In this document: one piece after another, positions 3,502-32,024 of the stretch
Layout of the letters: each line of letters begins with the position of its first letter
Position numbering within the stretch: position 1 is the stretch's first letter
Virus record (IMG/VR): IMGVR_UViG_2885633469_000002
Span: 32,001-96,000 of that record
Strand: one strand, 5' to 3'
Origin: a virus
Taxonomy: Duplodnaviria > Caudoviricetes
Length of the DNA stretch: 64,000 nt
Program-made: the position numbers and the translations under genes
The notes under the pieces: generated by a model
Told to the model about the DNA's origin: nothing
Database searches by the model: none
The model's input: the letters and a program-made list of their open reading frames with translations, nothing else

Positions 3502-5265
3502 TTACATTATAAAAGCATAGATATAGCCAGTTTCTATATTTGAATTTTCACCAATTATAATTAAACCATTCAAATCATCTATGTCCATAGCTTGTACTTT
3601 CATGCATCCATCTAAATCATTTTTAATATTAGTCTTAATATTCCCATACAGTTCACTTAAAGCATTTACGTTTATTTTACATTTTAAATCATTTACAGCA
3701 TTAACGTTTACTAAACCATTGAATCCAACAGGATTAACTCTTATACTTCCTTGAAGGTCATATCTTAATATTGTATTTATCAAACTTTCCATTTCTGATA
3801 TATCTTTATAAGTTGGTCGTATATATCCTTCTAAATCATTTACATACATTACTTTTAATTGTCCATTTAAGTCTTGTTTATATTTAACTTCTAATCTTCC
3901 TAATATATCATTTTTGTCACTAACTTGGATAAAACTCTGTAAATCTTTTCTTTTCATAGGAACAACATTTATATCACCTAATATATTAGATTTATATTTA
4001 ACTTTCAATCTTCCTGACATATCATTTTTGTCACTAACTTGGATTTTAGAATTTATATTTTGTTCCATTAAAGGTCTTATTTTATTTATACTGCCATATA
4101 GTTGTGATTTATATTTTACATCTATCAATCCATCTATATTAGAATTAGGCATAGTTTGTATATAGCCATACAAGTCTTTACAAGCACTAGAGCAAATAGT
4201 TCCATGTAATTTTTCTTTACTAGAGAATATTTCACCTTTAACATCACTTCTCAATCTTTGTGTTTTTATAACTCCATTCATATTTTTGAACTGTGCTACA
4301 TTTACTTTACTTTCTAACATATTCATATTATGAACATGAATGTTACCATCTATCAAACTTTCTCCCGAATGTCTAAATACTGATATGCCACCATATAAAT
4401 CGGCATTTCCTGTTCTTTGCACTTTTACGCTACCACCTATTATTGAGCCTGTAGTTAAAAATAAATCTTTATCAAAATATTCAATTTCTAATTTAGGAGG
4501 ATTTTCACTTTCCATAGTCCCAAAGTTTTTAACTTGTTTAATTGTTTCATCTTTAGATTTTAATATTAATCCCTGATTCTCATATGGATATAATACCCAT
4601 ATATCTTTTACTAATTCAGTGATATCTATAATATGCTCATATTTACCTTCTGGTAAATCAGATATTTTTACAACTCTTTTTCTTGAGGGTTGTCCATACC
4701 AAACTACATTGTATTCCCCCCAAGCCTTACTGGGTACTGATATTTCCAAATCTTTAAAACTATTAATATCGTCTGAATAAAGTTTTAATTTGGTTTTTGT
4801 TATATACATTGTCTGTAAGTCTTTAGGGATTTTAAATTCTAACAAACCTCTATAAACATAATTGTTTTTATCTGTACCAACTTTCATGATACTGCTTTTT
4901 CCATAATTCAAGCTAGGTTTTAACTCTGTAACATATGTATCCTTTATAGTTTTTAACTCCACAGTGTTTCTTTCTGGTAATACCGAACTCAACTCGGCTT
5001 CCATTTTATTTTTAGGTTGTTTATATATTTCTATATTCCCTTTGAAGATATCGCTTTGTTCACTCGTATTAATCACACCATTTATTTCAGTGTCTTCGTG
5101 CCAAGTTACATTAAAATCTGACTCCATTGTACTTGAAAAGGTTTTTTTTGTTTCTATAACCCCCGTAAGGCTATCTTCTTGATTAGTAACCTCTAAATTT
5201 CCATCTATTCCATCATTCCTATACCAAGTCATTTCAAACTCAGCTTCCATCGTACTTATATCCAT
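3502..5265 (-). CDS. DNRLRE/CBM96-like domain tail protein with repetitive beta-strand C-terminus
   Basis: DTYV..PSLNYG, RGLLEF, NQGLIL, PKLEIEY motifs; about 13-aa DLxGxIxV repeats; 26-nt exact repeat at 3905-3930 and 4019-4044. Confidence 0.6.
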   Translation of the reverse strand: MDISTMEAEFEMTWYRNDGIDGNLEVTNQEDSLTGVIETKKTFSSTMESDFNVTWHEDTEINGVINTSEQSDIFKGNIEIYKQPKNKMEAELSSVLPERNTVELKTIKDTYVTELKPSLNYGKSSIMKVGTDKNNYVYRGLLEFKIPKDLQTMYITKTKLKLYSDDINSFKDLEISVPSKAWGEYNVVWYGQPSRKRVVKISDLPEGKYEHIIDITELVKDIWVLYPYENQGLILKSKDETIKQVKNFGTMESENPPKLEIEYFDKDLFLTTGSIIGGSVKVQRTGNADLYGGISVFRHSGESLIDGNIHVHNMNMLESKVNVAQFKNMNGVIKTQRLRSDVKGEIFSSKEKLHGTICSSACKDLYGYIQTMPNSNIDGLIDVKYKSQLYGSINKIRPLMEQNINSKIQVSDKNDMSGRLKVKYKSNILGDINVVPMKRKDLQSFIQVSDKNDILGRLEVKYKQDLNGQLKVMYVNDLEGYIRPTYKDISEMESLINTILRYDLQGSIRVNPVGFNGLVNVNAVNDLKCKINVNALSELYGNIKTNIKNDLDGCMKVQAMDIDDLNGLIIIGENSNIETGYIYAFIM

Positions 5266-6432: not shown

Positions 6433-7044
6433 TTATATTCTAATAAACCATGTTAATTCTCCGCCAATATTTTTCTCTAGTGGTGCATGGATATTGTATG
6501 TTTTTAGATTATTTACTTTTATAACTATTTCGCCATCCAAGTCTACGTTTGAAACTAACCATATTTTAAAATTAGTAGGTTGTCCCATAGGTATATTTAT
6601 AATTGGTTTAAAATAAAAAAAAGTTCCATCTTCAAATGAAACTTTAGCTTTATATCCATAATTATATCCACAAAAATTAGTATTACTCATTCCACCATAT
6701 CTAATTTGAGAATAAGCATTTTTAAAATAAATAATATCATTATAATAAGTATCATTACTCATTAAATTATATTCTTTTTCTTTTGTTTTATAAAATACTT
6801 CTATTTTATTTTTATCAAACGTAAAAACACCTGTTAATGCATTAAAATATGTTCTTAATCCGTTGCCTACCAATCCAAATCTAATTAATTTATTCTTATC
6901 TATTTCTTTTACTGAATTATATATCTTTTTTTCAGGATTAAATTCAAAAAGGAAAGTATTATTTAAATACTCTCCTACAAACATATAGTCCATTTCTCTA
7001 CTAAAGGAATAAGGATGGACTTTTTCATATTTGTTTAACATCAT
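6433..7044 (-). CDS. Hypothetical phage protein in tail region
   Basis: 203 aa; GAGGTG RBS; operon context. Confidence 0.55.
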   Translation of the reverse strand: MMLNKYEKVHPYSFSREMDYMFVGEYLNNTFLFEFNPEKKIYNSVKEIDKNKLIRFGLVGNGLRTYFNALTGVFTFDKNKIEVFYKTKEKEYNLMSNDTYYNDIIYFKNAYSQIRYGGMSNTNFCGYNYGYKAKVSFEDGTFFYFKPIINIPMGQPTNFKIWLVSNVDLDGEIVIKVNNLKTYNIHAPLEKNIGGELTWFIRI

Positions 7045-7076
7045 TATTTACCACCTCATTGCATTGAGTTTTTGCT

Positions 7077-7673
7077 TTATACGTTGTAATATACTCTAAC
7101 TATAAATTTGTTTTTTTCTGCATCAGCAGAAGGCGGAACTTTTACTTGTGCTTTTATTTTTGCAAAATTATTTTTAGAACTTTCTGTTTTGAATTTACCA
7201 TCATTCATTTGCCCACTTATTGTTCCAGTTGACACTCCCGTACCATCTGTACTCCCCATAGCTGTAATCTGAATATCTTTCTGTGTTAATACACCATTTT
7301 TAAAAGTAGAACCTATTGGTATATATATTTCAGAATCTGATGAGTCGCTTGATAAGACATTATTAATCCTTACCCATTGCTCTATAACCAAAGGTGACTT
7401 CATTTCTCCTGCCATATAGTCTTCAAAACTTCCGTCTTTAGTTGTAACTCTACAATTAACCATATCTGGAACATTGTTATATTCAGATGTGCTAGATGGT
7501 TTTTTATTATTCCATATATAAAATGTATGCGTTGTTAAATCTGGGTTATTATCCGCATCTACTACTCCTAAATCCCATAAGTTATTTGGTACAGGTCTTT
7601 GTTTCAACTGCCCATCATTAGCATCTATATAATCTTCCCACCATGTTATTATCGGTTTTAATGCTGTTGACAT
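7077..7673 (-). CDS. Hypothetical structural protein in tail region
   Basis: 198 aa; AGGAGT RBS; beta-rich. Confidence 0.55.
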   Translation of the reverse strand: MSTALKPIITWWEDYIDANDGQLKQRPVPNNLWDLGVVDADNNPDLTTHTFYIWNNKKPSSTSEYNNVPDMVNCRVTTKDGSFEDYMAGEMKSPLVIEQWVRINNVLSSDSSDSEIYIPIGSTFKNGVLTQKDIQITAMGSTDGTGVSTGTISGQMNDGKFKTESSKNNFAKIKAQVKVPPSADAEKNKFIVRVYYNV

Positions 7674-7748
7674 AATACTATCACTCCTTTTATTATCTTC
7701 ATTATCAAGTATCTTTTCCCTGATAATGTATTTGTTGTTATACTTTAA

Positions 7749-9212
7749 TTAAATTAATATATTTACATTTATAGTTATATTTTCTATACCAAAGCCGACA
7801 TGTTTAACATTTAATCTAAATACGTCATTAGCTTGGACTTTAAGATGTACTATATTTCCTACATTAGCTTGATACTCACCATAATCAAATATGATTTCTT
7901 TATTTTCTTCACACACACCTGTCCAAGTATCTATACCATGTTGAAAATCCAATTCAGATATTTTTTCTAATTGTATAGATGTGTGTTCTGTGCCAGTGGT
8001 TTGGCAAATTCCTTCAATAGTATTTATTACCCCTTCGTTAGGAAATGTAATTAATACATTTTGAACACCTTGTTTTAGTTTATCTGTTGATAATACAAAT
8101 ACCATTGTCTTTGTATGAACATAATCGGGTAATGCGTTTTTAGCATCCTCTCCTACATAGTTCTTCTGTGCTTTATCTTCTATTTGATTTAATTTTACAT
8201 AATCATCTTTTCTCATGAGTCCATCCATATCTTTTTTTACTAATGGTATTCCACCTTTCATGTTACCTATGTATTTCCATGATACATTATCCCATCTATA
8301 TAAGTTTCCATTGTCCATAGTCATCACTAACCATCCAATATCTGGATTAGGATGTTTAATATCAATCTCCGCAAAGGAATTTACAGGCTCTTTCCATATC
8401 AGTCTAGTATTGAGTCTATCTATCTTAATATTTTCAGTTTCCTCTTTCGCCCTATCTGTTGCATCAATACATTCTTTTGTTTTTTCTATAGACAATTGAG
8501 TTGCTTGATTTGCTTTATCTGTGACGTTAATTGCGTTTTTAGTTGTTATTTCGGTTTTTTCTTTTGCTATAAGTGTTTCATTCTTTACTTTAATAGTTTC
8601 ATCAGTAATCTTCTTACATTCATTAGTTTGCTTCCTCGACAATTCAATATGAACATCAACTTCTCTAATTTTTGACTCTGCTTTTTCAATAAAAGTATTT
8701 ACATAAGCAACAAATTCATCAGTCTTCTGTTGAACAAAAATAGTAAATTCATTTGTCTTTTGTTCAATAAATGTTATTGCTTTTGCCACAGATTCTTTTA
8801 ATTCTTGCTCTTTTTGATAAATAAAATCTATTAATTCTTGTAAATTGTCAACTGCCCATGGGTTAGGACTATGTACATAAATTCTTCCAGCTGGATATTG
8901 AATAATGCCCTTCCCTTTATATTCAATAGTAACCGTCTTCCCATTTTGATTAGGACTAAAAGTTATTTCCCCGTTTGAATAATCCACATAAAACTCATTT
9001 TCAGCCAATACTTTTCTACAATCATATTTCTCTCTGGGAACTTCCACATATTCTTTAATCCTAACCTTATAAGTTATGTCAGGAACTTCATCTAAGCCTG
9101 TCCTTCCATTAATTATTGTATACTGACCTGTTTTTAAAACATAAGGATCATCATCTGTCCCTTTTCTCAATTTAAATCTTACAGCGTCAAAATAATATTT
9201 TAAATTTTTCAT
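7749..9212 (-). CDS. Baseplate/tail fibre-like protein with central coiled coil
   Basis: 487 aa; FYVDYSNG N-domain, long heptad region, LYRWD and DGLMRKDDYVKL motifs seen in phage tail fibres. Confidence 0.6.
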   Translation of the reverse strand: MKNLKYYFDAVRFKLRKGTDDDPYVLKTGQYTIINGRTGLDEVPDITYKVRIKEYVEVPREKYDCRKVLAENEFYVDYSNGEITFSPNQNGKTVTIEYKGKGIIQYPAGRIYVHSPNPWAVDNLQELIDFIYQKEQELKESVAKAITFIEQKTNEFTIFVQQKTDEFVAYVNTFIEKAESKIREVDVHIELSRKQTNECKKITDETIKVKNETLIAKEKTEITTKNAINVTDKANQATQLSIEKTKECIDATDRAKEETENIKIDRLNTRLIWKEPVNSFAEIDIKHPNPDIGWLVMTMDNGNLYRWDNVSWKYIGNMKGGIPLVKKDMDGLMRKDDYVKLNQIEDKAQKNYVGEDAKNALPDYVHTKTMVFVLSTDKLKQGVQNVLITFPNEGVINTIEGICQTTGTEHTSIQLEKISELDFQHGIDTWTGVCEENKEIIFDYGEYQANVGNIVHLKVQANDVFRLNVKHVGFGIENITINVNILI

Positions 9213-9241
9213 CTTGTCACCTCCTTTTAATGGAGTATATT

Positions 9242-9379
9242 TTATTCATCTTGAATAGTTTTTAAAGAGTTGACTACATCTACAAACAGTGGAACTTCCT
9301 TCCCCTCTAAAGGAACTCTATTTAAAAACATTTGTAAGTATTGTAAAACTTCTTCGCTTATCTCAATTTTATAATTCAT
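9242..9379 (-). CDS. 45-aa small protein at the end of the radical SAM cluster (absent from ORF track)
   Basis: Manual translation MNYKIEISEEVLQYLQMFLNRVPLEGKEVPLFVDVVNSLKTIQDE; AAGGAG RBS. Confidence 0.6.
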   Translation of the reverse strand: MNYKIEISEEVLQYLQMFLNRVPLEGKEVPLFVDVVNSLKTIQDE

Positions 9380-9396
9380 TTAACTCAGCTCCTTCT

Positions 9397-9582
9397 TTAT
9401 TTAAACCAATTTTTGATAATAAATTCTTTATTAAAGAATTGTACTTGAACATTACAATTACATATTAAATTACATTCACAATTTGAGTTGCAATTACAAC
9501 CACAATAATTTAACAAATACCTTTCTTTAATTTCTTTTATTCTTTCTTGCAAATCGTTGTTTAGCTCTAATATCCCTTCCAT
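9397..9582 (-). CDS. 61-aa Cys-rich peptide, candidate radical SAM substrate
   Basis: ATG at 9582 with GAGGTG RBS; helical N-part, then YCGCNCNSNCECNLICNCN (7 Cys). Confidence 0.7.
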   Translation of the reverse strand: MEGILELNNDLQERIKEIKERYLLNYCGCNCNSNCECNLICNCNVQVQFFNKEFIIKNWFK

Positions 9583-9595
9583 GCTCTCACCTCTT

Positions 9596-10024
9596 TTAGT
9601 TTGAAGACGGATGATAATTACAATTGCAACTACAATAATTACAATTACAGCGACATACATCACAATTACAAAAACAATTTGTGTTACAACCACAATCTTC
9701 TATTTTTACTGCTACACATCTACATACTCTCGCAGGTTTTACATAATCTAATAACTCTCCTAAAGAAACTGTTGATTTAGAGTAATATGATGTAAGAGTA
9801 TTACTTGCACAGGTAGTTTTTCTATAACCGTTATGTAGTTCATTTCCATGGCAATTGCAACCATATACTTTTGAAATCCCTTTTCTTGTGTCAACCAATT
9901 CATTTAGTAAATTTCTTAAATCATTTAAATCTCTGCTTAAATGAGGTTTAGGCTTACTTAAGCTACCTTTTTCTTCTTCTATATATTTTCTAACCCCACC
10001 TAAACTAACATCATTTGTAGGCAT
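9596..10024 (-). CDS. 142-aa Cys-rich protein with C-terminal CxC/CxCxC repeats, candidate radical SAM substrate
   Basis: AGGTGG RBS; 16 Cys; ends CRCVAVKIEDCGCNTNCFCNCDVCRCNCNYCSCNCNYHPSSN. Confidence 0.75.
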   Translation of the reverse strand: MPTNDVSLGGVRKYIEEEKGSLSKPKPHLSRDLNDLRNLLNELVDTRKGISKVYGCNCHGNELHNGYRKTTCASNTLTSYYSKSTVSLGELLDYVKPARVCRCVAVKIEDCGCNTNCFCNCDVCRCNCNYCSCNCNYHPSSN

Positions 10025-10034
10025 AATTGACCAC

Positions 10035-11303
10035 CTACCCTTTTATTATTTTTAACATCTCATTTTGATTTTTTATTATTTGTTTTTGATTTGTTTTCAT
10101 TTCATCTACTTCAATAAATAAAACCTTCATAGCTTGTGCTAAAACATCTAAACTTTCGTCTATAGTAAAAGAAGCTACCGAATTTTTATCTTGATAAAGA
10201 CTTAATTCAGTAGCTTTCTCTTTCATATATTCACATATTTCATGTTCAACGTGAGCCATTTCACAATAATGTCCTCTTATCTGTTTCTTTATATCACCAT
10301 TTACCATATAATTAGCTCCCAAACACCTATAACAGTTATAACACTCACATTGTCCGCAACCTTCCATCTCTTCATTCTTTAACTTTAAGAATGGTTTTCT
10401 TTTTTCATCGTCTATACCTTCATATAAACTACCTATCCTCATTTCACCTTTAAAATCATTAAAGTAAAAATGATGACATGGGTATATGTCTCCATTAGGA
10501 ATTATCGATATATAAGTTTTACCTGCATTGCAAGGAGGATTTACCCAACTTCTACCTTCTAATAGCTTACTTAATGGACTAAAGTTTTTTAATTCATCTA
10601 TTCTTTTATTTTTTATCATATCATCTAATATGTAATCTGATATTTTTTTTAATTGTTCTCTATATATTCCTACATCATTTATATCCCATTGTTCCTCATG
10701 CACAGGCATAAACCATATTCTTTCGATTCCACAACCTTCTCTAAAGAATTTGTAATTTTCAAATAAATGTGGCAAAGATTGTTTATTTAAACAACCATGA
10801 ACACTGAATTGTTGCGGACTATCTTTAAAAAGTTCTTTATATATCTTTATATTTTTTTCTACATATTTAAAACTACCCTCCCCATTTTCTCTAACCCTAT
10901 ACATATCATGTGTTTCTCTATTTCCATCACATGATAACTGTACCCCAAAATTTAATTTGTCTTTGTATTTAATTATTAATTTCTTAAGTTTCTCACTTAC
11001 ATATACACCATTTGTAATTAATCCTATCTGACATTGGATACCTGTTTCATTTTGTCTTTTAAAAGCATGAGTTAATAAAATATCAATTTTTTCAGGAACT
11101 AAAGTTGGTTCACCACCAAAAATACTAATATTAATTGATTTTTTTCCTGCCTTTTTAGCATTATTTAGCAAATAATCTATCCCATCTGTTATTACTTCGT
11201 CTTTTATTACCTCATGTCCAAACTTGTGTACAAAACAATACTTACACCTATTATTGCAATTTGTTGTCATTATAAAACTTGCATCTGTTGGTAAAACGTT
11301 CAC
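10035..11303 (-). CDS. Radical SAM/SPASM-domain enzyme
   Basis: CNNRCKYC (CxxxCxxC), FGGEPT, TNG and SCDG motifs; SPASM Cys in CNAG, GDIYPC, CGQCECYNCYRC, YC; likely GTG start at 11303 after AAAGGGA RBS. Confidence 0.92.
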   Translation of the reverse strand: MNVLPTDASFIMTTNCNNRCKYCFVHKFGHEVIKDEVITDGIDYLLNNAKKAGKKSINISIFGGEPTLVPEKIDILLTHAFKRQNETGIQCQIGLITNGVYVSEKLKKLIIKYKDKLNFGVQLSCDGNRETHDMYRVRENGEGSFKYVEKNIKIYKELFKDSPQQFSVHGCLNKQSLPHLFENYKFFREGCGIERIWFMPVHEEQWDINDVGIYREQLKKISDYILDDMIKNKRIDELKNFSPLSKLLEGRSWVNPPCNAGKTYISIIPNGDIYPCHHFYFNDFKGEMRIGSLYEGIDDEKRKPFLKLKNEEMEGCGQCECYNCYRCLGANYMVNGDIKKQIRGHYCEMAHVEHEICEYMKEKATELSLYQDKNSVASFTIDESLDVLAQAMKVLFIEVDEMKTNQKQIIKNQNEMLKIIKG

Positions 11304-11320
11304 TTTATCAATCCCTTTCT

Positions 11321-14300
11321 TTACTTTAAAATAATACAATCAAATTGGGGGTTAGAACCACCAGAATTATATATCGTAACTGAATTTGAACTTTTTTCTA
11401 TGCTTATTTCTCCTACGTATGTCAAAGAACTTTTGCCTATAGGAGTTACAGAAACAACATAGTCTAATGTTCCTAAATTATGTGTTATTGTTGTTCCATT
11501 CATTCCTGAAAATCTAGACGTTGCTTTAAATAAAGCAGGGAGTCTGTATGTGTAATCTGCTTCTCCTTGAATTTTACCTTTTTTAAACCATGCAATTCTA
11601 AGATTTCCTAAATCTGTCACATTTAAGGTTATTCCACCTTTGCCTAAACTCACACTACTAAGCCTTCTATTTGACATAATAGTAGACCCTGTACTTTGAT
11701 TTAACTCAAAAGCACTACCATTCTTATCATACATACCAAAATTATTCTCGTTATTGGCTGTTATAAAAAATTGTTGTGAATTATCGTAAGAATTAAACTG
11801 CAACAACCCACCTGTTTTTCTATCTCCTGATACTACATCTGACATATTATCTGTTGAAGATTTTGCTTTAATCATTATTTTTACATTATTATCTTCCCCA
11901 TATAATTTAACCACTCCTTGATTCAACTCCGCATCTTGAGAAGACATAAACAATTTAGGCTGTTCCAACTTATTATTTAACCTAATAGTCCCCCCTGTAT
12001 CATCACTTCCAGTTAATTCAACTATTTTTTTACTTTCATTATTTTTAATCCTTATTATCCCCATATCATTCAAGGATTGAGTCCCCATCTCAATCCTTTC
12101 TTTTGTCATATCACCATTATATAGTTTCAGAAATCCGCCCGTATATTTATAATCAGGAGCAGAGCCTAAAAAAGCATTTATATTTCCATCCCAATCATTT
12201 AATAATAATTTTCCACCATTACCTTCATCTTTATATAAATCTGCTAACCAGATTTTATTTTTAGAATTATTATATCTAAATACTCTAAACCTTCCATTAG
12301 CATCAACTTCACCATCTATATTAACATTAAATACATCGTCTCCATTTTGATTATTTATCCATATACATCCATTATCTATTCTCAATCCCTTGTTATCTAG
12401 AACCGAATGTGTATTTAAAATATGAAATGATTTAGCCCATACAGAACCATCATTTCCGTCTAAAAAAATCACATCCTCCCAAGGATATCCTTTCCCATTT
12501 CTTTTTTGAAGTTTAATGCCAACTTTAGGATTTAAAAAAATTCTATTTTTATCTTTGTTGCCTTCTAAAGATAAATCCATATTTATAGCTTTCATATGAT
12601 TTTTATCAACTAAAAAAGAAGATTCTCCTTCATCGTTCATATTTGTTATAATAAGTTTATTTGAGCCTACCAACTTGCCATAAATTTGTTCAGCTACGTT
12701 TCCATATGGTGTGACAGCTGTTGAAACTGTTTTCCAATTATCTTTAGTCATAACAAGGCAATTATTTACAATTCTTAATTGTTCGTCATCAGAAAACATA
12801 TCTTTCATATGTATTCCTCTTTCGTCTATCCTTATATTTTGATTCCTAGCACTTAATATCCTATTTTTCGCACTATCTAATACATTACTCATTATTTGAC
12901 TTACTAAATCAGTGTTTCTCTCACTTAAGTTCCATATAGGTTTATACATATCAACTGTATTAGCCACATCATTTACGTTTTTCATTAAGTCTGCTAAGTA
13001 ACCTGCTGTATTATCTGCATCTTCCTTATTGCTAATTGTAATGTTTAAACTATTTTTATCTATTTCATGTGTTATATTTATAATCCTTACTTTATATTCG
13101 GTATTCATTCTATCTGAATATATATGAATAAAATCTCCTAATTTCAATTTATTCCAATCGTGTTGACATTCAACTAAATTCAAAAAATTCACTATATCTA
13201 AGCTTAATTCTATAATTGGCTGAGACAAATTATCTAATGCGTTTTTACCTGCTGATAGTAAATCTTTATTATCATAATAATTTTCATTTTTCCACGTATC
13301 TTCTTTTATAAAATCATCTAACACATTCAATTGTGATGTAGTAAAATTATTGCTTTTTTTAAGGCTTTCACCTAATTGTTTTATACTATTATTATTTTGA
13401 TTTATGTCTAAAACAACATTCTTAATCTCTTCTTCTTTTTTTTTCATTTTATTTTTTATGTCATCTCTTATTTTATTTAATTCTGTTAAATCTTTAGCTT
13501 TATCAAAATCAGATAAATTTACTTTTAATTCCTCTGATATATCTAAAGTACCGTCATTTACTTTTGATATAGGCTCATCTTTATTTTTTTTGTTAAATTG
13601 TATTACGTTATCTATATTATCTTGTGCAATCTCATATTTCACCTTTAAATCAACTAAATCATTTTCTAATTTTGCAACTCTTGAATCTAAAGTATGTCTT
13701 TGTTTTAATAAATTATAAAATATAGGTGTTTTTTCTTCTATTAACACATCATATTTATTCAAAGCATCTAATAAATCTTGTGGCATGTATTTTAATGTTC
13801 TATAATATGAAAAGTTTTCTATATAAGGCATACCAGTAGGATTTATATCTGTTATGTTTAAGTTATCTTTTCCATATATATTTAACCTTGTTATTAAATC
13901 ATCATCTTTCACATGCCTACTTATTTTTCTTGCATAATTTTGTTTTGAAATATATAATCCCTTATCCTCAGTTATATTATCTATATGATAAATATTTATA
14001 ATTTTACTTAAACTATCAAATTGTAAAACACAGTCAAAGGATTTCTGGATGTCTTCTCTAAGAAAGCTTAGCCAATCTTGTTCAGATATATTAAATACTC
14101 TATACTTACGATGATTTTGCCCATCGCTTCTATCTTCCCTTACTTCAGGATCAACATATCCTATTTCCCATGATGTTTCATTTTCTAATATATTTAATAT
14201 TCCATCACCTGTTTCCGATATTATCTTTATACTCACTTCTATTTTATAGTTAATACTATCAGTTACTTTATAAATTACATCTATATTTTCTAATTCGTGT

Positions 14301-14914
14301 AATTTATCTTTTGAGTTCCATTTATATGTATTAATTTCTGTATCGTTATGGTCATAAACTTTAATAAATAAGTTTTTGCCTTCCTCCATAATAAATGAAT
14401 TTGTATAAGTTACATAATTAATATCGTCAAAAGAATACTTTATTTTGTTTACTAATGTCTCTGAACCATCTCTGTATAATTGTCTTGTCCCTACAAAATT
14501 AACTAATTTTCTTTTAGATAGGTTTATTTCTCTACTATAACAATGAATACTTTTTACATATTTCTCATCGTCATCATCTTCGTACTCATTGATTTTGAAC
14601 ATATATTTATTATTTACTTTAACTAACATTCCATCTTTAATAGCATCAATGTTGGGGTTTTTTATTTGCTCATGTTGCCTTTTGATATAATATGGTATTT
14701 TAAAACTTAGTTCATAAGTATCTTTAAAAGGAGTTGTAAAAGATATATCATAGGCATCTTTTAACATAGATATTTCAGTATCATCTTGTCTACATAAAAT
14801 TAATTGAAAATCTTCTTTTGCGGTTTTTAAATCTCTATTTATTTTCCCTAATTCAAATTTATTTTTTACTAGACATTCATCTACCCTTTCGCCATTTAGA
14901 TATACATAACTCAT
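11321..14914 (-). CDS. Tail tip/spike protein (YomG/Tal-like)
   Basis: About 1197 aa directly after the distal tail gene; TRLNIYG..INPTG.PYIENFSYY motif, coiled coil, beta-helix-like C-terminus. Confidence 0.75.
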   Translation of the reverse strand: MSYVYLNGERVDECLVKNKFELGKINRDLKTAKEDFQLILCRQDDTEISMLKDAYDISFTTPFKDTYELSFKIPYYIKRQHEQIKNPNIDAIKDGMLVKVNNKYMFKINEYEDDDDEKYVKSIHCYSREINLSKRKLVNFVGTRQLYRDGSETLVNKIKYSFDDINYVTYTNSFIMEEGKNLFIKVYDHNDTEINTYKWNSKDKLHELENIDVIYKVTDSINYKIEVSIKIISETGDGILNILENETSWEIGYVDPEVREDRSDGQNHRKYRVFNISEQDWLSFLREDIQKSFDCVLQFDSLSKIINIYHIDNITEDKGLYISKQNYARKISRHVKDDDLITRLNIYGKDNLNITDINPTGMPYIENFSYYRTLKYMPQDLLDALNKYDVLIEEKTPIFYNLLKQRHTLDSRVAKLENDLVDLKVKYEIAQDNIDNVIQFNKKNKDEPISKVNDGTLDISEELKVNLSDFDKAKDLTELNKIRDDIKNKMKKKEEEIKNVVLDINQNNNSIKQLGESLKKSNNFTTSQLNVLDDFIKEDTWKNENYYDNKDLLSAGKNALDNLSQPIIELSLDIVNFLNLVECQHDWNKLKLGDFIHIYSDRMNTEYKVRIINITHEIDKNSLNITISNKEDADNTAGYLADLMKNVNDVANTVDMYKPIWNLSERNTDLVSQIMSNVLDSAKNRILSARNQNIRIDERGIHMKDMFSDDEQLRIVNNCLVMTKDNWKTVSTAVTPYGNVAEQIYGKLVGSNKLIITNMNDEGESSFLVDKNHMKAINMDLSLEGNKDKNRIFLNPKVGIKLQKRNGKGYPWEDVIFLDGNDGSVWAKSFHILNTHSVLDNKGLRIDNGCIWINNQNGDDVFNVNIDGEVDANGRFRVFRYNNSKNKIWLADLYKDEGNGGKLLLNDWDGNINAFLGSAPDYKYTGGFLKLYNGDMTKERIEMGTQSLNDMGIIRIKNNESKKIVELTGSDDTGGTIRLNNKLEQPKLFMSSQDAELNQGVVKLYGEDNNVKIMIKAKSSTDNMSDVVSGDRKTGGLLQFNSYDNSQQFFITANNENNFGMYDKNGSAFELNQSTGSTIMSNRRLSSVSLGKGGITLNVTDLGNLRIAWFKKGKIQGEADYTYRLPALFKATSRFSGMNGTTITHNLGTLDYVVSVTPIGKSSLTYVGEISIEKSSNSVTIYNSGGSNPQFDCIILK

Positions 14915-14930
14915 AAAAAACACCTCCTTT

Positions 14931-15704
14931 TTATATTGCTATAGGATAACAACATCTAATTGATACTCTTACATCCCCTCTAATTTCTAGTAAATTATAT
15001 CCTCTTACTAACCTAATCCAGTTTTTATTAAAATTATCTAATCTATACGTATTAGGTAGGTTACTTTTAATTCTTTGCATATTATTGTCAACATATATAA
15101 TTTCATTTTTTATTAAATTGTCAATCTTAAAGATTTCACCAGCATTACTTAAATTTTCTATTTCTATACTTGTATCTCCAACCATTTCTATTTCTATTTC
15201 AGGATAATAATATTTTTTAACATTACTTAAATTTTCTATTTCTAATATATTTGAATTAGAAATAGAAAAATCCCATGTATATATATATGTTGGAGAATAA
15301 GCATAAGGGCTGTTACATTCCATTGTTAATGTTATATAACCCTGCATTGCTCCAGTATCAAATCTTCTTGCATCCCCGATTAATTTACAATAATAAATAA
15401 CTTCTGGATTGTCTAGTGATATAAATGGCTTATAGTCATCTTGAAATAACCATTTAACTACATCTTTTCTAGTTTTATAATCCCACAATAAATCATCATC
15501 AGTTATTTTTGCTAAAGTAATTTTGAACTTTAATGGGTCTGTATTAAAACCATAGGAGTATATGTTATCATTAATTTTGTCTATTCTATTCTCTCTTTTG
15601 TATCCAAAAATAGATTCTATCATATCTGTATTTGTATCTACCAATGTTAATCCCATATCAGAACCTTTTATCCCATCGTACATAAATTGTGTACTTATAA
15701 ACAT
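14931..15704 (-). CDS. Distal tail protein (Dit)
   Basis: 257 aa right after tape measure gene; CNSPYAYS and LVRGYNLL motifs. Confidence 0.75.
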   Translation of the reverse strand: MFISTQFMYDGIKGSDMGLTLVDTNTDMIESIFGYKRENRIDKINDNIYSYGFNTDPLKFKITLAKITDDDLLWDYKTRKDVVKWLFQDDYKPFISLDNPEVIYYCKLIGDARRFDTGAMQGYITLTMECNSPYAYSPTYIYTWDFSISNSNILEIENLSNVKKYYYPEIEIEMVGDTSIEIENLSNAGEIFKIDNLIKNEIIYVDNNMQRIKSNLPNTYRLDNFNKNWIRLVRGYNLLEIRGDVRVSIRCCYPIAI

Positions 15705-15740
15705 TTATCTCAAATCACCACCTTAAATTAAAATACTCTA

Positions 15741-18700
15741 TTATTTATATATACCTCTTTTGTTGTATGCTTTTCTTAATTCCTTTAATACGTCATTTTT
15801 AAGAACACTTTTTAATTTTGGAAATATATTCTCGTCAACATTTCCTTCAACATTTAATAAATTCCTTATTTTTATAACTCCATTACCATTTTCTGGCATA
15901 GAGTTTGTATTAATTTTAGGAAACATACACGCTAAATTATCTCCATTAGGTAAATTCTTAACTACGCTGTATAACTTCTTTGCTTGACTACTATTAAAAA
16001 TTACTTCTGAATTTGATTGACTGCCATGAACCATTGCTAATCCAGAATAGTCCATTACTCCACCTTCACTAAATTGTGGTACTCCTCCATGACTAGCCCA
16101 TGCGATAATCCTCTCCAAAGTTTCTTTTGAAGTTACACCACCTAATCTAATCACCCCTATTGCTCTCAATATATCATCTGAAACAGGAGATACTCCTTTT
16201 TCACCTAAAACAATATCCCCCTCTCTTAAAATTTTTTCTAATTCTTCCGAAGATAAATGTTGCGTATTAACAAATTTATACCCCATAGCAGATAACCACT
16301 TTTGAGCATTTTTTAAATCTTCGCCCCAACCATAAACAGTATTTTTTATTTCCTTAACATCTCCTGCGATCATTTTTTTTTCATAATCAGCATATCCAGA
16401 AACTATTTTATCAGTCTCATATCTATCATTTCCTTTTAACCTTCCTGCTCCATTTAAATTTTTATTATTTAATGCATTTCCAATAACTAAATCATTTTTA
16501 TCTAATTTTATTTTGTCTAATTCATTTTTAGATAGTTTAGTTATATCAATTACTTCATACCCTAATTCTGATAAATATTTTTGTGCAATTATATAATCGT
16601 TTATTTTATTATTTCCATCAGACTGAGCATATACTTTTTTATCTTCACTTTTTGTAATAGAATTGTTTTTTTTAGGCTTTTCTATCTCTTTAATCTTACT
16701 TAAAATATTATCTAAATTCTGTGCAGTATCTATCGCCTTTTGTAAATTATCAATTAAGTTGGATTTAATTTTTGTTCCAATTAAACTTAATCCTTCTCCC
16801 CATTCATCTTCATATTTTAATATAGCATCTGTTAAATTCATCATTTCTCCATTTATATATTTAATTTGATTTCTAAATATAGCTTTTCTTGCTTCTGAAT
16901 ATAAATTTTCTTTCTGCATTAGTTTTTTATAATACTCTTCAGTATTTTTTAATTCTTTATCAAGTCTCTCTTTTGTATCCTCATATTTTTTATTTTCTGC
17001 TTTATTCTTTTCTTCATATTCTTTTTGTATATCTTCTAATTTATCATTAAGATTCTCTTTTCTTAAATCTATTTCTCTTTTATGTCTAAAATCATCTATT
17101 TCTTCTTGTTTTTTATCTATTTGTTCTTTTAAACTATTCTTTTTTACTTTACCCTCAAGTGTGTCTACAAGCATCCAAGAATTGTATTCATATTGCAATT
17201 TTAACTTTTCACTTATTAAAGTATTTAATTGTTTTTCATAATTGTCTGTTTTTTCATTTTTATCGAATTCTTTTAATTGTGATTTTATTATTTCTTCTCT
17301 TACTTTCTTTTCTTCATTTAAATTATCAATTGATTTTTTATGTCTTTTCTCTTCTAAATCTTTTTTTTCATTGTATTGTTTTTTATATTCATCTAATTCA
17401 GTCTCATATCTTTTCTTAATTATTTCTATTATTTTTTGTTCTAAACTCTTTAAATTATCCAATTCGCTTTGTAAATTATTTTTTAATTCTTCGTTGTTTT
17501 GTTTCATAGATTTTGCAATATCTCTTATTTTTTCATTATATTCTTTGGCTTTATCATTAAGGAAATTCCATTCATAAGTATTCTCTTTTAACAAATCTCT
17601 TTCTGCTAATAGTTCTATTTTCGCCTTTTGAATATAAATAATATATTTTTGTTGTTCGTCAACCTTTTTCGATAAAAATCTTGTCTTGTCTTTCTCATAG
17701 AATATGTCTTTTACATTTAAAAGGTCTATTTTATCTTGCATTTCAGTTATTTCACTATCAAATTCTTTAAAATATCTATCATCAAATTTAATTTTAAATT
17801 CCCATTTAGTTTGAAACGCATCTTGTAAAGCCTTTGTCATCTTCTCAATTTCACCTACAGTATCTTGTAGGTCAAATCTCATTTTAACAATTTGGTCTGA
17901 AGTATGTCCACCATACCATATTTGTTTTTGCATGTACTTTTGTTTTTCTAATAATACTCTATTTTTTTCTTTAATTTCATTTGTGTAATTATCAAAATTC
18001 TTAAAACTATCAACAACACTTGTAGACCATTGTTCAGCTCTGTCCTTATAGATAGATGCATTTACATTAGTTCTTTTTATTTTATCATCAAAAATTCCGA
18101 TTGTTGATTCATATTTATCCACTTTTAATTGGTTAAATTGGTCTTTTAATCCAATTAATTGTTGCTTTAAATCCTCTGCTTTATTCCATGCTCTATCTGC
18201 CCTTTCTTCTGGTGACACGTCTTTTACAGAGTTTTTATTTTGATAAGATATCTTACCAGAAGAATAACCTCCACCTGATAATTCATTATAAATAGATTTT
18301 ACAGTAGGTATCCAATTTTTATTCAATCCATTTGGGTCATTACTTGCACCTATTGGAGCATATTTTGCACCTATTTGCTCTATTGTTGTTAATCCTTGAT
18401 TAAAATAAAGATTCTTTAAATTTCTTGCTGAAAATTCTATTCCCTCAGCAATAGAATTAAAATGTTTTATTGTTTTCCAATTATTTTCCCAATCCATAAT
18501 ACCCGATGGATTATTATGATTTCTAATCGCTGGAGAAGTACCTCTGCCAGATTCAAACATAGAAATTGATGCCAGTAAATATGGGTCTATTTCATATTTA
18601 CTTCCTGCATTAACAAAGTCTTGTCCATGACCTCTTAAAACTCCTTGTAACTTATTATCTAAATGTGTATTGCTATAACTACTTGAAGCCACACCCGACC

Positions 18701-21700
18701 TAGCACCCTCAACATTTTTATAACTACTTGCTAATTGATTATTCTTTTTAATTTCTTGTTCAGTCAATTTAATTTGTTGCTTGATTAGATTGCCTTTTTT
18801 GTCTAACGCCTTTATATAGTCCCATGAATTTTTATATAATTTACTATTAGAAGAATTTAACTTATCTAACTCGGTTTTTAAAGCTTTTATAGAATTGGCA
18901 TATTCATCTGTAGCATATTTAGCTTTCTCAGTGGATTTTGTAGTATCATCTAACGAAGGTATGTATTCATTATTATTTGTTGATATTATTTTGTCTAAAT
19001 TTTTTAAAGCTTTTTCATAAGATAAGTCAATTTTATCTATTTCATCTTTTAGTTCATTTTCTTTCCCTTTTTTTTTATTAGCTATATCCGTAAATATACT
19101 CGCAGAAGTAGGACCGCCAATTAACTTCGACCCTATATCTATCACTGAAGGGTTTTTTTCTGCTTCTTTAGCTTTATCCATATAAAAATTATATTTTTCT
19201 TGTAACACTTCAATTTGTTTTTTAGCTTGTACATATGTCATTTTGGTTATGCCCTTTTGAATCATTGCATCTTGTTTAGACGCTTCTAACTTTGCCTTCG
19301 TTAAATCTTGAACTGTTAATTTTTTATTACCTAGTATTTTTATCTCATTTTTAATTAAATTCATATTTTGTATACTAGAAAGCCCAGCCTCGTCCTCCAC
19401 TGTAATCAAACCTGAAATAATAGGCTTTAGTTTATTTGAAATATCTGACATACGTTCTTTTTCTTCTATATTTTTATTTTTTATATCATTTAATTCTAAA
19501 TACTCATTTCCAAGTTCTTTAATTGTATCCTTATATTGCAATTCAACTTCGTTAGTATTTTGTATACCTTCAATAATTTCATGATTTTGCAAATTGTTTG
19601 TAGCTTCTGTCACCTTGTATATCTCACCAGTATATTCGTTAAAAGCTACTCCTGCGTCAGTTAGAATTTTTTTTTGGTCATCTATCTTTTTATTAAAGTT
19701 GTTTAAATCGCTTTCTGCCATTTTGAATATCATCCAATTGGAGACATTCCATGAATCTCCTTTATCCCAGTTACTCTTTTTTTCATTTATTTCTTTTTCT
19801 AATTTTTTTCTTTCTTTAAGTAATTCTTTATATTCATTTTGCTTTTCTTTTAATTCATCTACAGTTGATCCAATTTCAATTTTATCGCCATCTTTTAATG
19901 CCTGATTTAATTTATCATAGCTTCTTTTAACCGAATCAGTTGATTCTTTTAATTCTTTTTGATACTGTATATGTTTGTGTAATTTATATGTAGCTACACC
20001 TAAAATTGCTATAAACCATGTTAAAGGATTTTTCAAAAGAGCTATAGTTACTCCAGTTATACCTTTACGTAATGCAATAAATGTTTGTGTCAAAGCTGTT
20101 ATTATACCATTTTGTTTGGCTGTATACAGAAAACCTTTTAAAACCCCTTTTAATTTGTTTAATCCTTTAGTGATATAAGACGTGTGCTTAAATAAAGTTA
20201 CCCATGCAAATCCCAACCCAAGTACAGCAACACCTGATTTTTTTGATGTAGACGTTATTACATTAAAAGTATTAATAATTTCAGTACCAGCTTTAATAAA
20301 ATTATTTATAGTATCGGATTGAATTAAATTTCTCCATAAATTTTCTAATGCTCTTTTGAAATCATTAATTTTTGCTTCATTTGATTGACTGTAAAAACTT
20401 TCAAACTTCTGCTTAGCAGAACCACTAGCGTCTCCAACTTTTTCTTGTAACTCAGCAACTTTATCAAGATTTTGCATCAATACTAAAAAGTTTTCTCTTT
20501 GCCTTGTACCTGCGAGACTTTTAGCTATATCACTTTTTTGTAAATCGTTTAAATTACCCCATTTATTTCCTAAATCTTCAATTACTGTTGAAAAACTTTT
20601 AAAATGAGTAGCATCTTTTCTAATTGCAACACCAATTTTATTAAGAGACCTTTCAACATTTGAAAGAGGCTGATTTTCAGCATCAAATTTTTTTCCTTGC
20701 TTAATATCCTGATATCTTGCAAAAATACTTTTAAAAGACTCTCCAATACTTTCCGCAGATTTCCTAGTTGTAGAACTAACTACTCCTATATATTCTGAAA
20801 GCCCTTCCATTGACACTCCTGCCATTTGTGCGGAACTCGAAGAACGTTTCATTCCTTCTGCTAATTCTGCAAAACTAGTAGCCGCATTGTTATCAATCGT
20901 ACTTAGAGTATCTACTACTTTCATTGTTTCTTTGGCTTCCATACGAAATCCATTAGTAATAGCAATCAGTTGTTCAGACACATCTTTTGTACTTTGTCCA
21001 GACAGTTTTGCTCCTATTGTAGAACTTTCCAATAGTTTTCCTGTTTCCTCTACATTTCTTCCAGCTCTAAAAAATTCAACTGAGCCTTCCATTATTTCTT
21101 TAGTAGTAGTATGCAATACATCCGCCAACTTACTGTATTTATCGGTTAGTTCCTCTATCTCAGCCTTGTTCATATTTGTCACCATACCAACATCAGTTTC
21201 TACTTTATTTAAGTCATTTATAAAAGAAACCCCTTCTTTTAATTTTCTTAAAACCCCAAATAAAGCTGTTCCTGCTATAGTAAACCTTACCAAACGCTCA
21301 ATACTAGTTTTCATTCTCTCTGCAAACGTAGTCTGTTTTTTGTTTATATTCTCAATTCCTGTAGCCATGGAATAAGTTGACTTAGTAGTATTATCTATAG
21401 TCATCTTATATTTACTTAATCTTTTTCCGCCTTCATTTATATTCACATTAACTTGTTTTATTTTGTTACCCATACTATCTACACTATTAGCTATATTCGA
21501 AATACTAGCATTTAGTCCATATGTTTTTTTTACAAATTTTTCAATATCTTTAAATGAAGAATTTATATTAATTTTTCCATTTACTTTATTACCTAATTTA
21601 ATAATTCTTTGTTGTTCTTTTAATTTTGATTCATATGCATCTAATTGCTTATTAATTTCATTAAAATCTTTAACTATATTTGAAGATTTAGGGTCTAGCG

Positions 21701-22859: not shown

Positions 22860-22893
22860 AAAAATCCTCCTTTCTTTATTTTGATAAAATAAA

Positions 22894-22917
22894 AAGACAG
22901 GCATTGATACCTGTCTT
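22894..22917 (-). terminator. Rho-independent terminator after the moron gene
   Basis: aagacagg/cctgtctt stem followed by a T-run on the minus strand. Confidence 0.65.
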
Positions 22918-31988: not shown

Positions 31989-32024
31989 TTAAAAATTCTC
32001 CTTTCAAAGATATTAAAATAAAAA

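Follow-up and report, generated by a model that had tools for sequence, protein, structure and literature searches.

What are a radical S-adenosylmethionine (SAM)/SPASM enzyme and two cysteine-rich proteins doing among the tail genes of a clostridial phage? Radical-SAM thioether chemistry is familiar from small secreted peptides. The locus in question lies in a 64,000-nt stretch of the IMG/VR virus record IMGVR_UViG_2885633469_000002 (positions 32,001 to 96,000, hereafter the window), where a four-gene cassette, all on the minus strand, is inserted within tail genes, between a tail-tip gene and further tail-type genes. The cassette encodes the enzyme (R1), two proteins with repeated Cys-x-Cys (CxC) motifs (C142 and C61) and a small protein (p45). 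The pairing of R1 with Cys-rich protein genes is well supported by sequence comparison, because their adjacency is conserved and the N-terminal domain of the Cys-rich proteins (N-domain) is tied exclusively to Cys repeats. The reading towards which we lean, with a little better than even confidence, is that R1 cross-links the CxC cores of C142 and C61 by way of their leader-like regions, giving a late product that is probably an accessory or partner of the distal tail. The window's own set of genes is best read as a reduced version of a cassette conserved among phages, from which a second radical SAM gene, R2, has been lost.

The cassette and its enzyme

R1 (10035–11303) most likely starts at GTG 11303, giving 422 aa, the length of database entry P0001; the alternative start at TTG 11339 (434 aa) is less likely. 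An AAAGGGA ribosome-binding site is found upstream of the R1 start, 17 nt past the stop of the preceding 1200-aa tail gene. C142 (142 aa, 9596–10024) follows with its N-domain and Cys tail, then C61 (61 aa, 9397–9582), in which a CxC core lies between a short helical leader and a cap-like end, and finally p45 (45 aa, 9242–9379). The intergenic gaps are 10, 13, 17 and 29 nt and a GGAGG-like site precedes each cassette gene, C61 having its own AGAGGTGA ribosome-binding site 5 nt ahead of the ATG. A consensus scan of positions 7000–16000 found no terminator-like site on the minus strand, and promoter-like sites were not above shuffled sequences (58 versus a mean of 65). The first-pass annotation of this DNA had described four tightly packed genes with good ribosome-binding sites, on the strand of the tail genes and without an obvious promoter or terminator; this description holds, with the strand now specified as minus. 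The Cys patterns that it quoted for the 142-aa and 61-aa proteins are exact in the translations: the C-terminus of C142 reads CGCNTNCFCNCDVCRCNCNYCSCNCNYHPSSN, with 13 of its 16 Cys within the last 42 residues, and C61 contains YCGCNCNSNCECNLICNCN.

R1 scored above the gathering cut-offs of PF04055 (Radical_SAM; 57.3 bits versus 29.5) and PF13186 (SPASM; 25.2 bits versus 21.5). The radical-SAM cysteines C16-x3-C20-x2-C23 are nearly invariant in the R1 clade and the auxiliary-cluster cysteines C258, C276, C319, C324, C327 and C347 are invariant in 39 clade sequences; the protein also carries a C-terminal extension of ~60 aa. R1 matched 61 NCBIfam families and fell under the curated cut-off for each of the best 25 of the 61. 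Specifically, the best model, PapB (NF047865), gave 184.1 bits versus 340, the CXXX-repeat family models TIGR04115 and TIGR04119 gave 148.1 versus 350 and 91.2 versus 150, the SCIFF maturase TIGR03974 110.7 versus 425, QhpD 105 versus 453, the anaerobic sulfatase-maturating enzyme (anSME) model TIGR03942 89.2 versus 349, and the CrpC-type model TIGR04463 61.2 versus 525, over the N-terminal core only. The closest solved relative of the clade profile was CteB (5WGG; E 4.7e-49), aligned over CteB residues 93–441, with a far weaker match to an anSME in the PDB (E 9e-22). Whether by family model (PapB, the CXXX-repeat family, the SCIFF maturase) or by structure (CteB), the best matches of R1 are without exception maturases that form Cys thioethers in peptides, which supports a place for R1 in the branch of radical SAM/SPASM enzymes that matures peptides that are ribosomally synthesised and carry post-translational modifications (RiPPs).

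A search of 5.8 billion proteins with R1 returned ~48 proteins (P0001–P0048) at E≤1.2e-54. The next matches, at 2.8e-44 or weaker, were proteins of 591–718 aa, one of which (P0050) is named by NCBI as CXXX-repeat family, and SCIFF-type proteins appeared near 1e-23. Because the scores drop past these ~48 proteins, R1 falls into a clade of its own inside the thioether-maturase branch. Since the CteB alignment starts at residue 93, R1 also lacks the N-terminal leader-binding domain (RiPP recognition element, RRE), in agreement with the earlier proposal made from the position of the CxxxCxxC motif, which begins at residue 16. The same annotation had placed the enzyme among radical SAM/SPASM peptide maturases, as the Pfam domains and RiPP-maturase relatives bear out, and had been unable to assign it to a characterised family, which the NCBIfam scores explain. 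It had also allowed that the homologues might be anaerobic sulfatase maturases, an outcome that the TIGR03942 score argues against.

The CxC-repeat proteins and their loci

R1-clade loci (numbered with the prefix L) were collected from three sources: 16 loci from viral contigs, 11 from species genomes (three distant ones dropped) and 29 from metagenomes (three distant ones dropped). The dropped loci (L025–L027 and L062–L064) share 23–27% identity with R1 and lie outside the clade, and L028–L035, from the window's own genome or from class searches, stand outside the tallies. By a crude rule in which loci sharing an identical 200-nt stretch count as one, the 50 loci reduced to 36 distinct loci, among which the near-identical L017 and L018 are tallied as two; the closest R1 relatives (63–82% identity) are left out of the neighbourhood tallies. 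A CxC-rich open reading frame (ORF) was present in 30 of the 36 loci, nearly always adjoining R1 on the same strand, and the N-domain was recognisable in the CxC-rich ORFs of 23 of these 30; the six loci without such an ORF are short contigs or end beside R1. The check suggested at the outset, a hidden Markov model (HMM) and gene-neighbourhood search for co-occurrence, thus came out in favour of the pairing, the Cys-rich partner being kept mostly near tail, baseplate or fibre genes. Two to four Cys-rich genes occur together in several loci (L016:245–3827, L001:4618–5343, L019:10121–10624 and L024:72–644), some of them being without the N-domain or having another Cys pattern, such as the CQ/CE repeats in L001:4618–5343. 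In L021, a family-2 glycosyltransferase gene (PF00535; 3285–4178) lies between the Cys-rich gene and R2.

C142 is laid out as a helical leader-like N-domain (residues ~1–100) and a CxC-repeat tail (101–135) with nine CxC motifs. It scored 57 bits (E 6e-16) against the N-domain HMM, aligned with the family in multiple alignments and had five close homologues, with zero matches in Pfam, PHROG or NCBIfam. The N-domain spans ~75 aligned positions with the features SL..LK....KGGY, a helix L..LK.L...M...R, Cys-x-x-His and LSLGD. Its profile recovered 91 proteins at E≤1e-3 from 1.84 billion cluster representatives. Cys made up at least 6% of the residues in 79/90 N-domain proteins and at least four CxC motifs occurred in 77/90, the remaining matches being fragments of 53–131 aa or evident chance matches. 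Across 960 CxC motifs in 79 members the repeat consensus was C-[STD]-C-[NDQ]-[ST]-R-T, with a spacing of 8–11 residues, and a C-terminal cap, CxCNGRCxCNxxxxF, closes many members. C142 is without this cap and none of its nine CxC motifs is followed by xxR. At the related loci the Cys-rich proteins are 139–494 aa long and contain 13–81 Cys. The 142-aa protein had been described as a Cys-rich partner of the enzyme; that description stands, and is now extended to membership of a leader-domain and CxC-repeat family whose proteins reach ~630 aa.

No domain assignment came from the wider searches: 0/19 family members matched PHROG or NCBIfam models, and eight long or fused members had no Pfam match, seven of the eight being also without a PHROG match. 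The fused members P0212 (612 aa), P0167 (538 aa), P0179 (384 aa) and P0188 (632 aa) carry extra domains free of Cys repeats, in the form of a Tyr/Asn-rich C-terminal part of ~340 aa, an insert of ~150 aa that separates two blocks of repeats or 165 additional aa at the N-terminus; these four had neither a Pfam nor a PHROG match. A protein atlas gave weak leads only (best score 0.82, to viral hypothetical proteins). One such lead is PF27846, a Pfam family of CXXX-repeat targets: in a mostly viral atlas cluster of low similarity to C142 (rank 29/30, score 0.75), 25% of the proteins carry it.

In AlphaFold2 models, C142 has helices at residues 8–18, 33–47 and 88–95 (pLDDT ~70–89) and a Cys tail with pLDDT <40, and the Cys-rich protein of L020 reaches pLDDT 82–93 over residues 1–40. 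In neither model does the Cys region reach pLDDT 45, and it does not fold in silico. Searching both models against BFVD with Foldseek gave best E-values of 1.6 and 4.4. In a comparison by VIA-align with 48,161 PDB representatives the highest Z, 4.5, was to a CsgA fibril and fell in a low-confidence region. We assign no fold from these searches, which are no evidence of a new fold either. In the L020 model the cap residues 233–237 (..EKRFV) form a short strand with pLDDT 66, above that of the preceding repeats; on this model, the strand may pack on the N-domain and so join both ends of the protein.

C61 has one database homologue cluster, 89% identical and likewise of 61 aa, and a counterpart at the matching position in the Clostridium mobile prophage (L017 9736–9921). 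C61 ends in CNCNVQVQFF, resembling the family cap, and the C. mobile counterpart ends in CTCNARCACNTQRIF, which is also cap-like. The C61 leader resembles the second helix and Cys motif of C142 weakly (single-comparison E 0.004–0.008), which is suggestive only, and an iterated C61 search across the related loci recovered C61 alone. Small proteins of this type retain only the helix, a Cys/His-containing stretch and the core. The 45-aa protein, present as first described, can now be recognised as a recurrent end-of-cassette gene: in an iterated search, p45 homologues closed the cassette in L017/L018, L015 (identical with L022/L040) and L021. A weak match to phrog_18977 was also obtained for p45.

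R2, a second, short radical SAM gene of 258–302 aa (for example L017:9884–10660, L009:10132–10995, L019:10636–11514 and L020:10037–10927), was found in 27/36 distinct loci. No SPASM domain was detected in R2, whose best match is to the first two-thirds of the PapB model (96–109 bits). The window has no R2, and a search of the whole 3.28-Mb genome found no orthologue, the best matches being host radical SAM genes at 26–37% identity. The closest comparison is offered by L017, a syntenic prophage of C. mobile MSJ-11, and by the near-identical metagenome-assembled genome L018. These contain the genes for the tape-measure protein (TMP), Dit, Tal and R1, a 139-aa N-domain protein, a 61-aa Cys protein, a 258-aa R2, a 65-aa p45 homologue and the 487/198/203/379/587-aa set also found in the window; the gene order matches that of the window except for R2.

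The presence of R2 goes together with a feature of the repeats. In 23 of the 25 distinct R2 loci with a CxC-rich ORF, 33–96% of the CxC motifs have xxR after them, the exceptions being L017 and L018 (both 0/5), and in the R2-less, non-truncated lineages the counts are 0/9 for the window, 0/10 for L013 and 1/31 for L024. Because few independent lineages are available, this association is a lead: the Arg-Thr part of the repeat may be a site of R2 action or something that R2 requires. As a further lead, the Arg-Thr part may have been lost first in the clade of the window and R2 later.

Placement in the tail module

In the window the cassette is preceded by genes for a TMP, a Dit and a Tal and followed by one for a protein with a CBM96 module. 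Transcription runs, all on the minus strand, from the tape-measure gene through Dit, the 1200-aa tail tip, R1, C142, C61 and p45 to the genes for the 487-, 198-, 203-, 379- and 587-aa proteins. The tape-measure protein (2387 aa, 15741–22904) matches PF10145; a weak glucosaminidase match (PF01832; 27.7 bits versus a cut-off of 30.2) in the same protein would correspond to a tail activity that degrades the cell wall. The Dit-type distal tail protein (257 aa) matches phrog_33 and DUF6558. The 1200-aa tail-tip or minor tail protein directly upstream of R1 (11321–14923) matches PF06605 (Prophage_tail), PF24049 (YOMG_N) and phrog_6211 (E 1.6e-193). The 487-aa protein directly downstream of the cassette (7749–9212), 55% identical to its counterpart in L017, matches phrog_11315 (E 3.5e-114), a family of unknown function, and the 198-, 203- and 379-aa proteins that come after it match unknown-function PHROGs. 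The 587-aa late protein (3502–5265) matches PF24517 (CBM96; E 6.5e-16) and phrog_11333. Because it carries a carbohydrate-binding module, this last protein is likely a host-polysaccharide-binding tail protein of the same operon.

The flanks had first been described as a tail-tip gene and a baseplate or fibre gene. The upstream assignment was borne out by PF06605 and phrog_6211; the downstream one is plausible but putative, because the 487-aa protein matches only unknown-function PHROGs. No transporter, protease or immunity gene was present among the neighbours scanned with Pfam and PHROG, as had been noted earlier.

A comparable setting recurs elsewhere. The cassette follows TMP-Dit-Tal in L017/L018 as in the window and Dit-Tal in L015 (Izimaplasma HR2). 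Of ten genes immediately 5' of a cassette, five matched a tail-category PHROG, one a 'head protein' PHROG and four had no match. Tail fibre or tail protein PHROGs were matched upstream in L011, L019, L001 and L004, and in L020 the match was to phrog_6, a baseplate wedge family (myovirus). Of the 25 PHROG families that 95 flanking ORFs from 30 loci matched most frequently, the annotated ones were tail, baseplate (wedge), fibre, virion structural and endolysin families and one radical SAM family, with no head, packaging or replication annotation among the 25.

The last ~65 aa of the 1200-aa tail protein (window 11321–11520) recur in distant loci (tblastn E ~1e-4), either as the C-terminus of a tail fibre or as a free ORF of 83–84 aa (L011:7748–7936 and 12236–12439; L013:3021–3218), and each copy directly precedes R1 or a second Cys-rich gene. 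The Cys-rich protein may dock on this piece.

The cassette is rare in sequenced genomes: of 399 genomes of the class that were scored, two carry it, one of them being the window's own, and a further two genomes received no score. Against cultured-phage records, a megablast of window positions 7000–15000 gave no match, tblastn of R1 gave distant matches at ≤30% identity and no cassette relatives, and tblastn of P0212, P0167 and P0179 gave no match. A search of sequencing runs returned two rows from one study, each matching a 0.05 share of the sampled words, with no RNA run among those listed, and gives no evidence either way.

Proposed modification and competing explanations

Several known systems pair a related enzyme with a Cys-rich substrate. 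CteB, the closest solved structure to R1 by sequence over the radical SAM core and SPASM domain, acts in the Clostridium thermocellum SCIFF system (5WGG, 5WHY) on CteA, which is also Cys-rich. CteB has an N-terminal domain of ~90 aa that R1 lacks, and CteA is ~45 aa long, whereas the present proteins are CxC-repeat proteins of 61–142 aa (to ~630 aa in the family) encoded in a phage tail operon. PapB, which makes the ranthipeptide freyrasin from PapA, is the best model for both R1 and R2, and PapA has several Cys cross-link sites; the PapB acceptor pattern is Cys-x3-Asp, which is absent from C142 and C61. The CXXX-repeat system (TIGR04115 and TIGR04119), the second-best family for R1, likewise targets a Cys repeat, but there Cys recurs at every fourth residue, as opposed to CxCNCxx in the window and CxCNSRT in the family, and the CXXX-repeat models gave no match to the substrate N-domain.

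The nearest precedent is CrpC, reported in 2026, a radical SAM/SPASM enzyme of Methanococcus voltae that installs ranthionine links on CrpA, a large repeat protein rich in Cys whose N-terminal region is leader-like (main text of PMC13692751). According to the same text, the Crp cluster holds a second leader-sharing protein and the Cys region of CrpA is poorly modelled, with a possible beta-helix. Unlike R1, CrpC has an RRE; the repeat sequences differ, and the Crp system is archaeal and chromosomal, the word 'phage' occurring 0 times in the main text of PMC13692751. In the available text of PMC12801897, a cyanophage radical SAM maturase is called an 'antibiotic synthesis gene' without analysis. 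No description of radical SAM enzymes with Cys-rich proteins in phage tail modules was found in the literature, supplements such as the CrpA homologue list of PMC13692751 being outside the search.

On the reading we prefer, R1 would recognise the helical, leader-like N-terminal region of the co-transcribed C142 and C61 and would put several Cys-derived cross-links into their CxC-repeat tails. We infer that C142 and C61 are the proteins on which R1 acts and, because of R1's relatives and the CrpC/CrpA system, that the cross-links are most likely ranthionine-type or sactionine-type thioethers. Translation of the cassette would come late, along with that of the tail-tip and host-binding genes, and the rigid cross-linked product would probably belong to the distal tail as an accessory part or act as its partner. 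That the product has a structural role there is suggested by the gene position, by the lack of export or protease genes and by protein sizes unlike those of RiPPs; the presence of the product in the virion is the weakest step of this proposal. A bolder form, which we regard as less likely than not, is that C142, C61 and their larger relatives are tail-tip components stapled by many R1 thioethers, a redox-proof and protease-proof substitute for disulfides in the host-contact apparatus of phages of anaerobes. The number of repeats and the action of a second enzyme on the Arg-Thr part would then tune the structure.

Several points weigh against the proposal that R1 cross-links a tail-associated product. 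No member of the family was found in cultured-phage records at the sensitivity of tblastn, so that existing virion proteomes cannot have sampled it. None of the Cys-rich members tested (19 with PHROG/NCBIfam, eight with Pfam) has a recognisable tail-fibre or virion domain. Because R1 falls under the curated cut-off of every characterised family, its reaction type is not fixed, and the CxCNCxx repeats of the window are without the acceptor patterns of the PapB or SCIFF systems. CxC repeats are suited to metal binding as well. Finally, the window is without the R2 carried by most related loci, so that the copy studied here could be a decaying remnant.

An unlikely alternative is that C142 and C61, matured by R1, are a phage RiPP-like product, not a part of the virion, which serves as a bacteriocin, signal or effector either after release at lysis or within the cell. 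The RiPP-maturase lineage of R1, leader-and-core substrates of which one is just 61 aa, endolysin genes near several cassettes and the want of a virion domain in any member tested would all be consistent with such a product. It is harder to reconcile with the window neighbourhood, where no protease, exporter or immunity gene was found among the genes scanned, and with family members of 494–632 aa and up to 81 Cys, far above RiPP size. A position within tail operons, without promoter or terminator signals of its own and across both siphovirus-type and myovirus-type modules, also speaks against it.

It is improbable that these are instead metallothionein-like proteins binding metal or iron-sulfur clusters, with the radical SAM enzyme making a modification other than a thioether or drawing clusters or sulfur from them. 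Metal-thiolate clusters typically show CxC spacing, and a Cys region that cannot be folded in silico is what would be expected of a protein in need of a cofactor. The CrpA system, moreover, was tied by its authors to growth on pyrite (main text of PMC13692751). Metal binding would not readily account for the strict link of the family to a peptide-maturase-type radical SAM/SPASM enzyme and a leader-like domain, nor for conserved non-Cys repeat residues (N, R and T) that co-vary with the presence of a second radical SAM enzyme; this co-variation points to the residues being reaction sites, and not to metal ligands alone. Least credible is a non-functional remnant, in which R2 was lost and an ancestral substrate decayed into two short ORFs: although R2 is absent from the window and its genome and kept in the C. 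mobile prophage, and C142 has merely nine CxC motifs and no cap, the four ORFs are intact with strong ribosome-binding sites, relatives at 78–89% identity keep equal lengths, the R2-less L013 and L024 also have intact R1 and substrate genes, and the two-ORF layout is shared with C. mobile, its larger proteins being only ~30% identical, so that the layout is old and maintained.

A radical SAM/SPASM maturase with a Cys-rich substrate is already known in kind, and since 2026 radical-SAM thioether chemistry has also been reported on one archaeal Cys-rich protein (main text of PMC13692751). New here are the substrate family, an RRE-less enzyme clade that is usually paired with a second, truncated radical SAM enzyme, and their conserved placement: the family and its own enzyme clade sit inside the tail modules of unrelated phages of anaerobes. 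The cassette suggests that phages apply the chemistry of peptide antibiotics to the cross-linking of a protein produced alongside the tail, and the window, with one enzyme and two short substrates, offers a minimal system. Should the product not be virion-borne, the cassette would define a new class of phage-encoded RiPP-like proteins. A virion-borne product would be the first case of enzymatic cross-linking of the RiPP type in a virus particle and a new form of particle maturation, and would offer a route to cross-links insensitive to oxygen and reductants.

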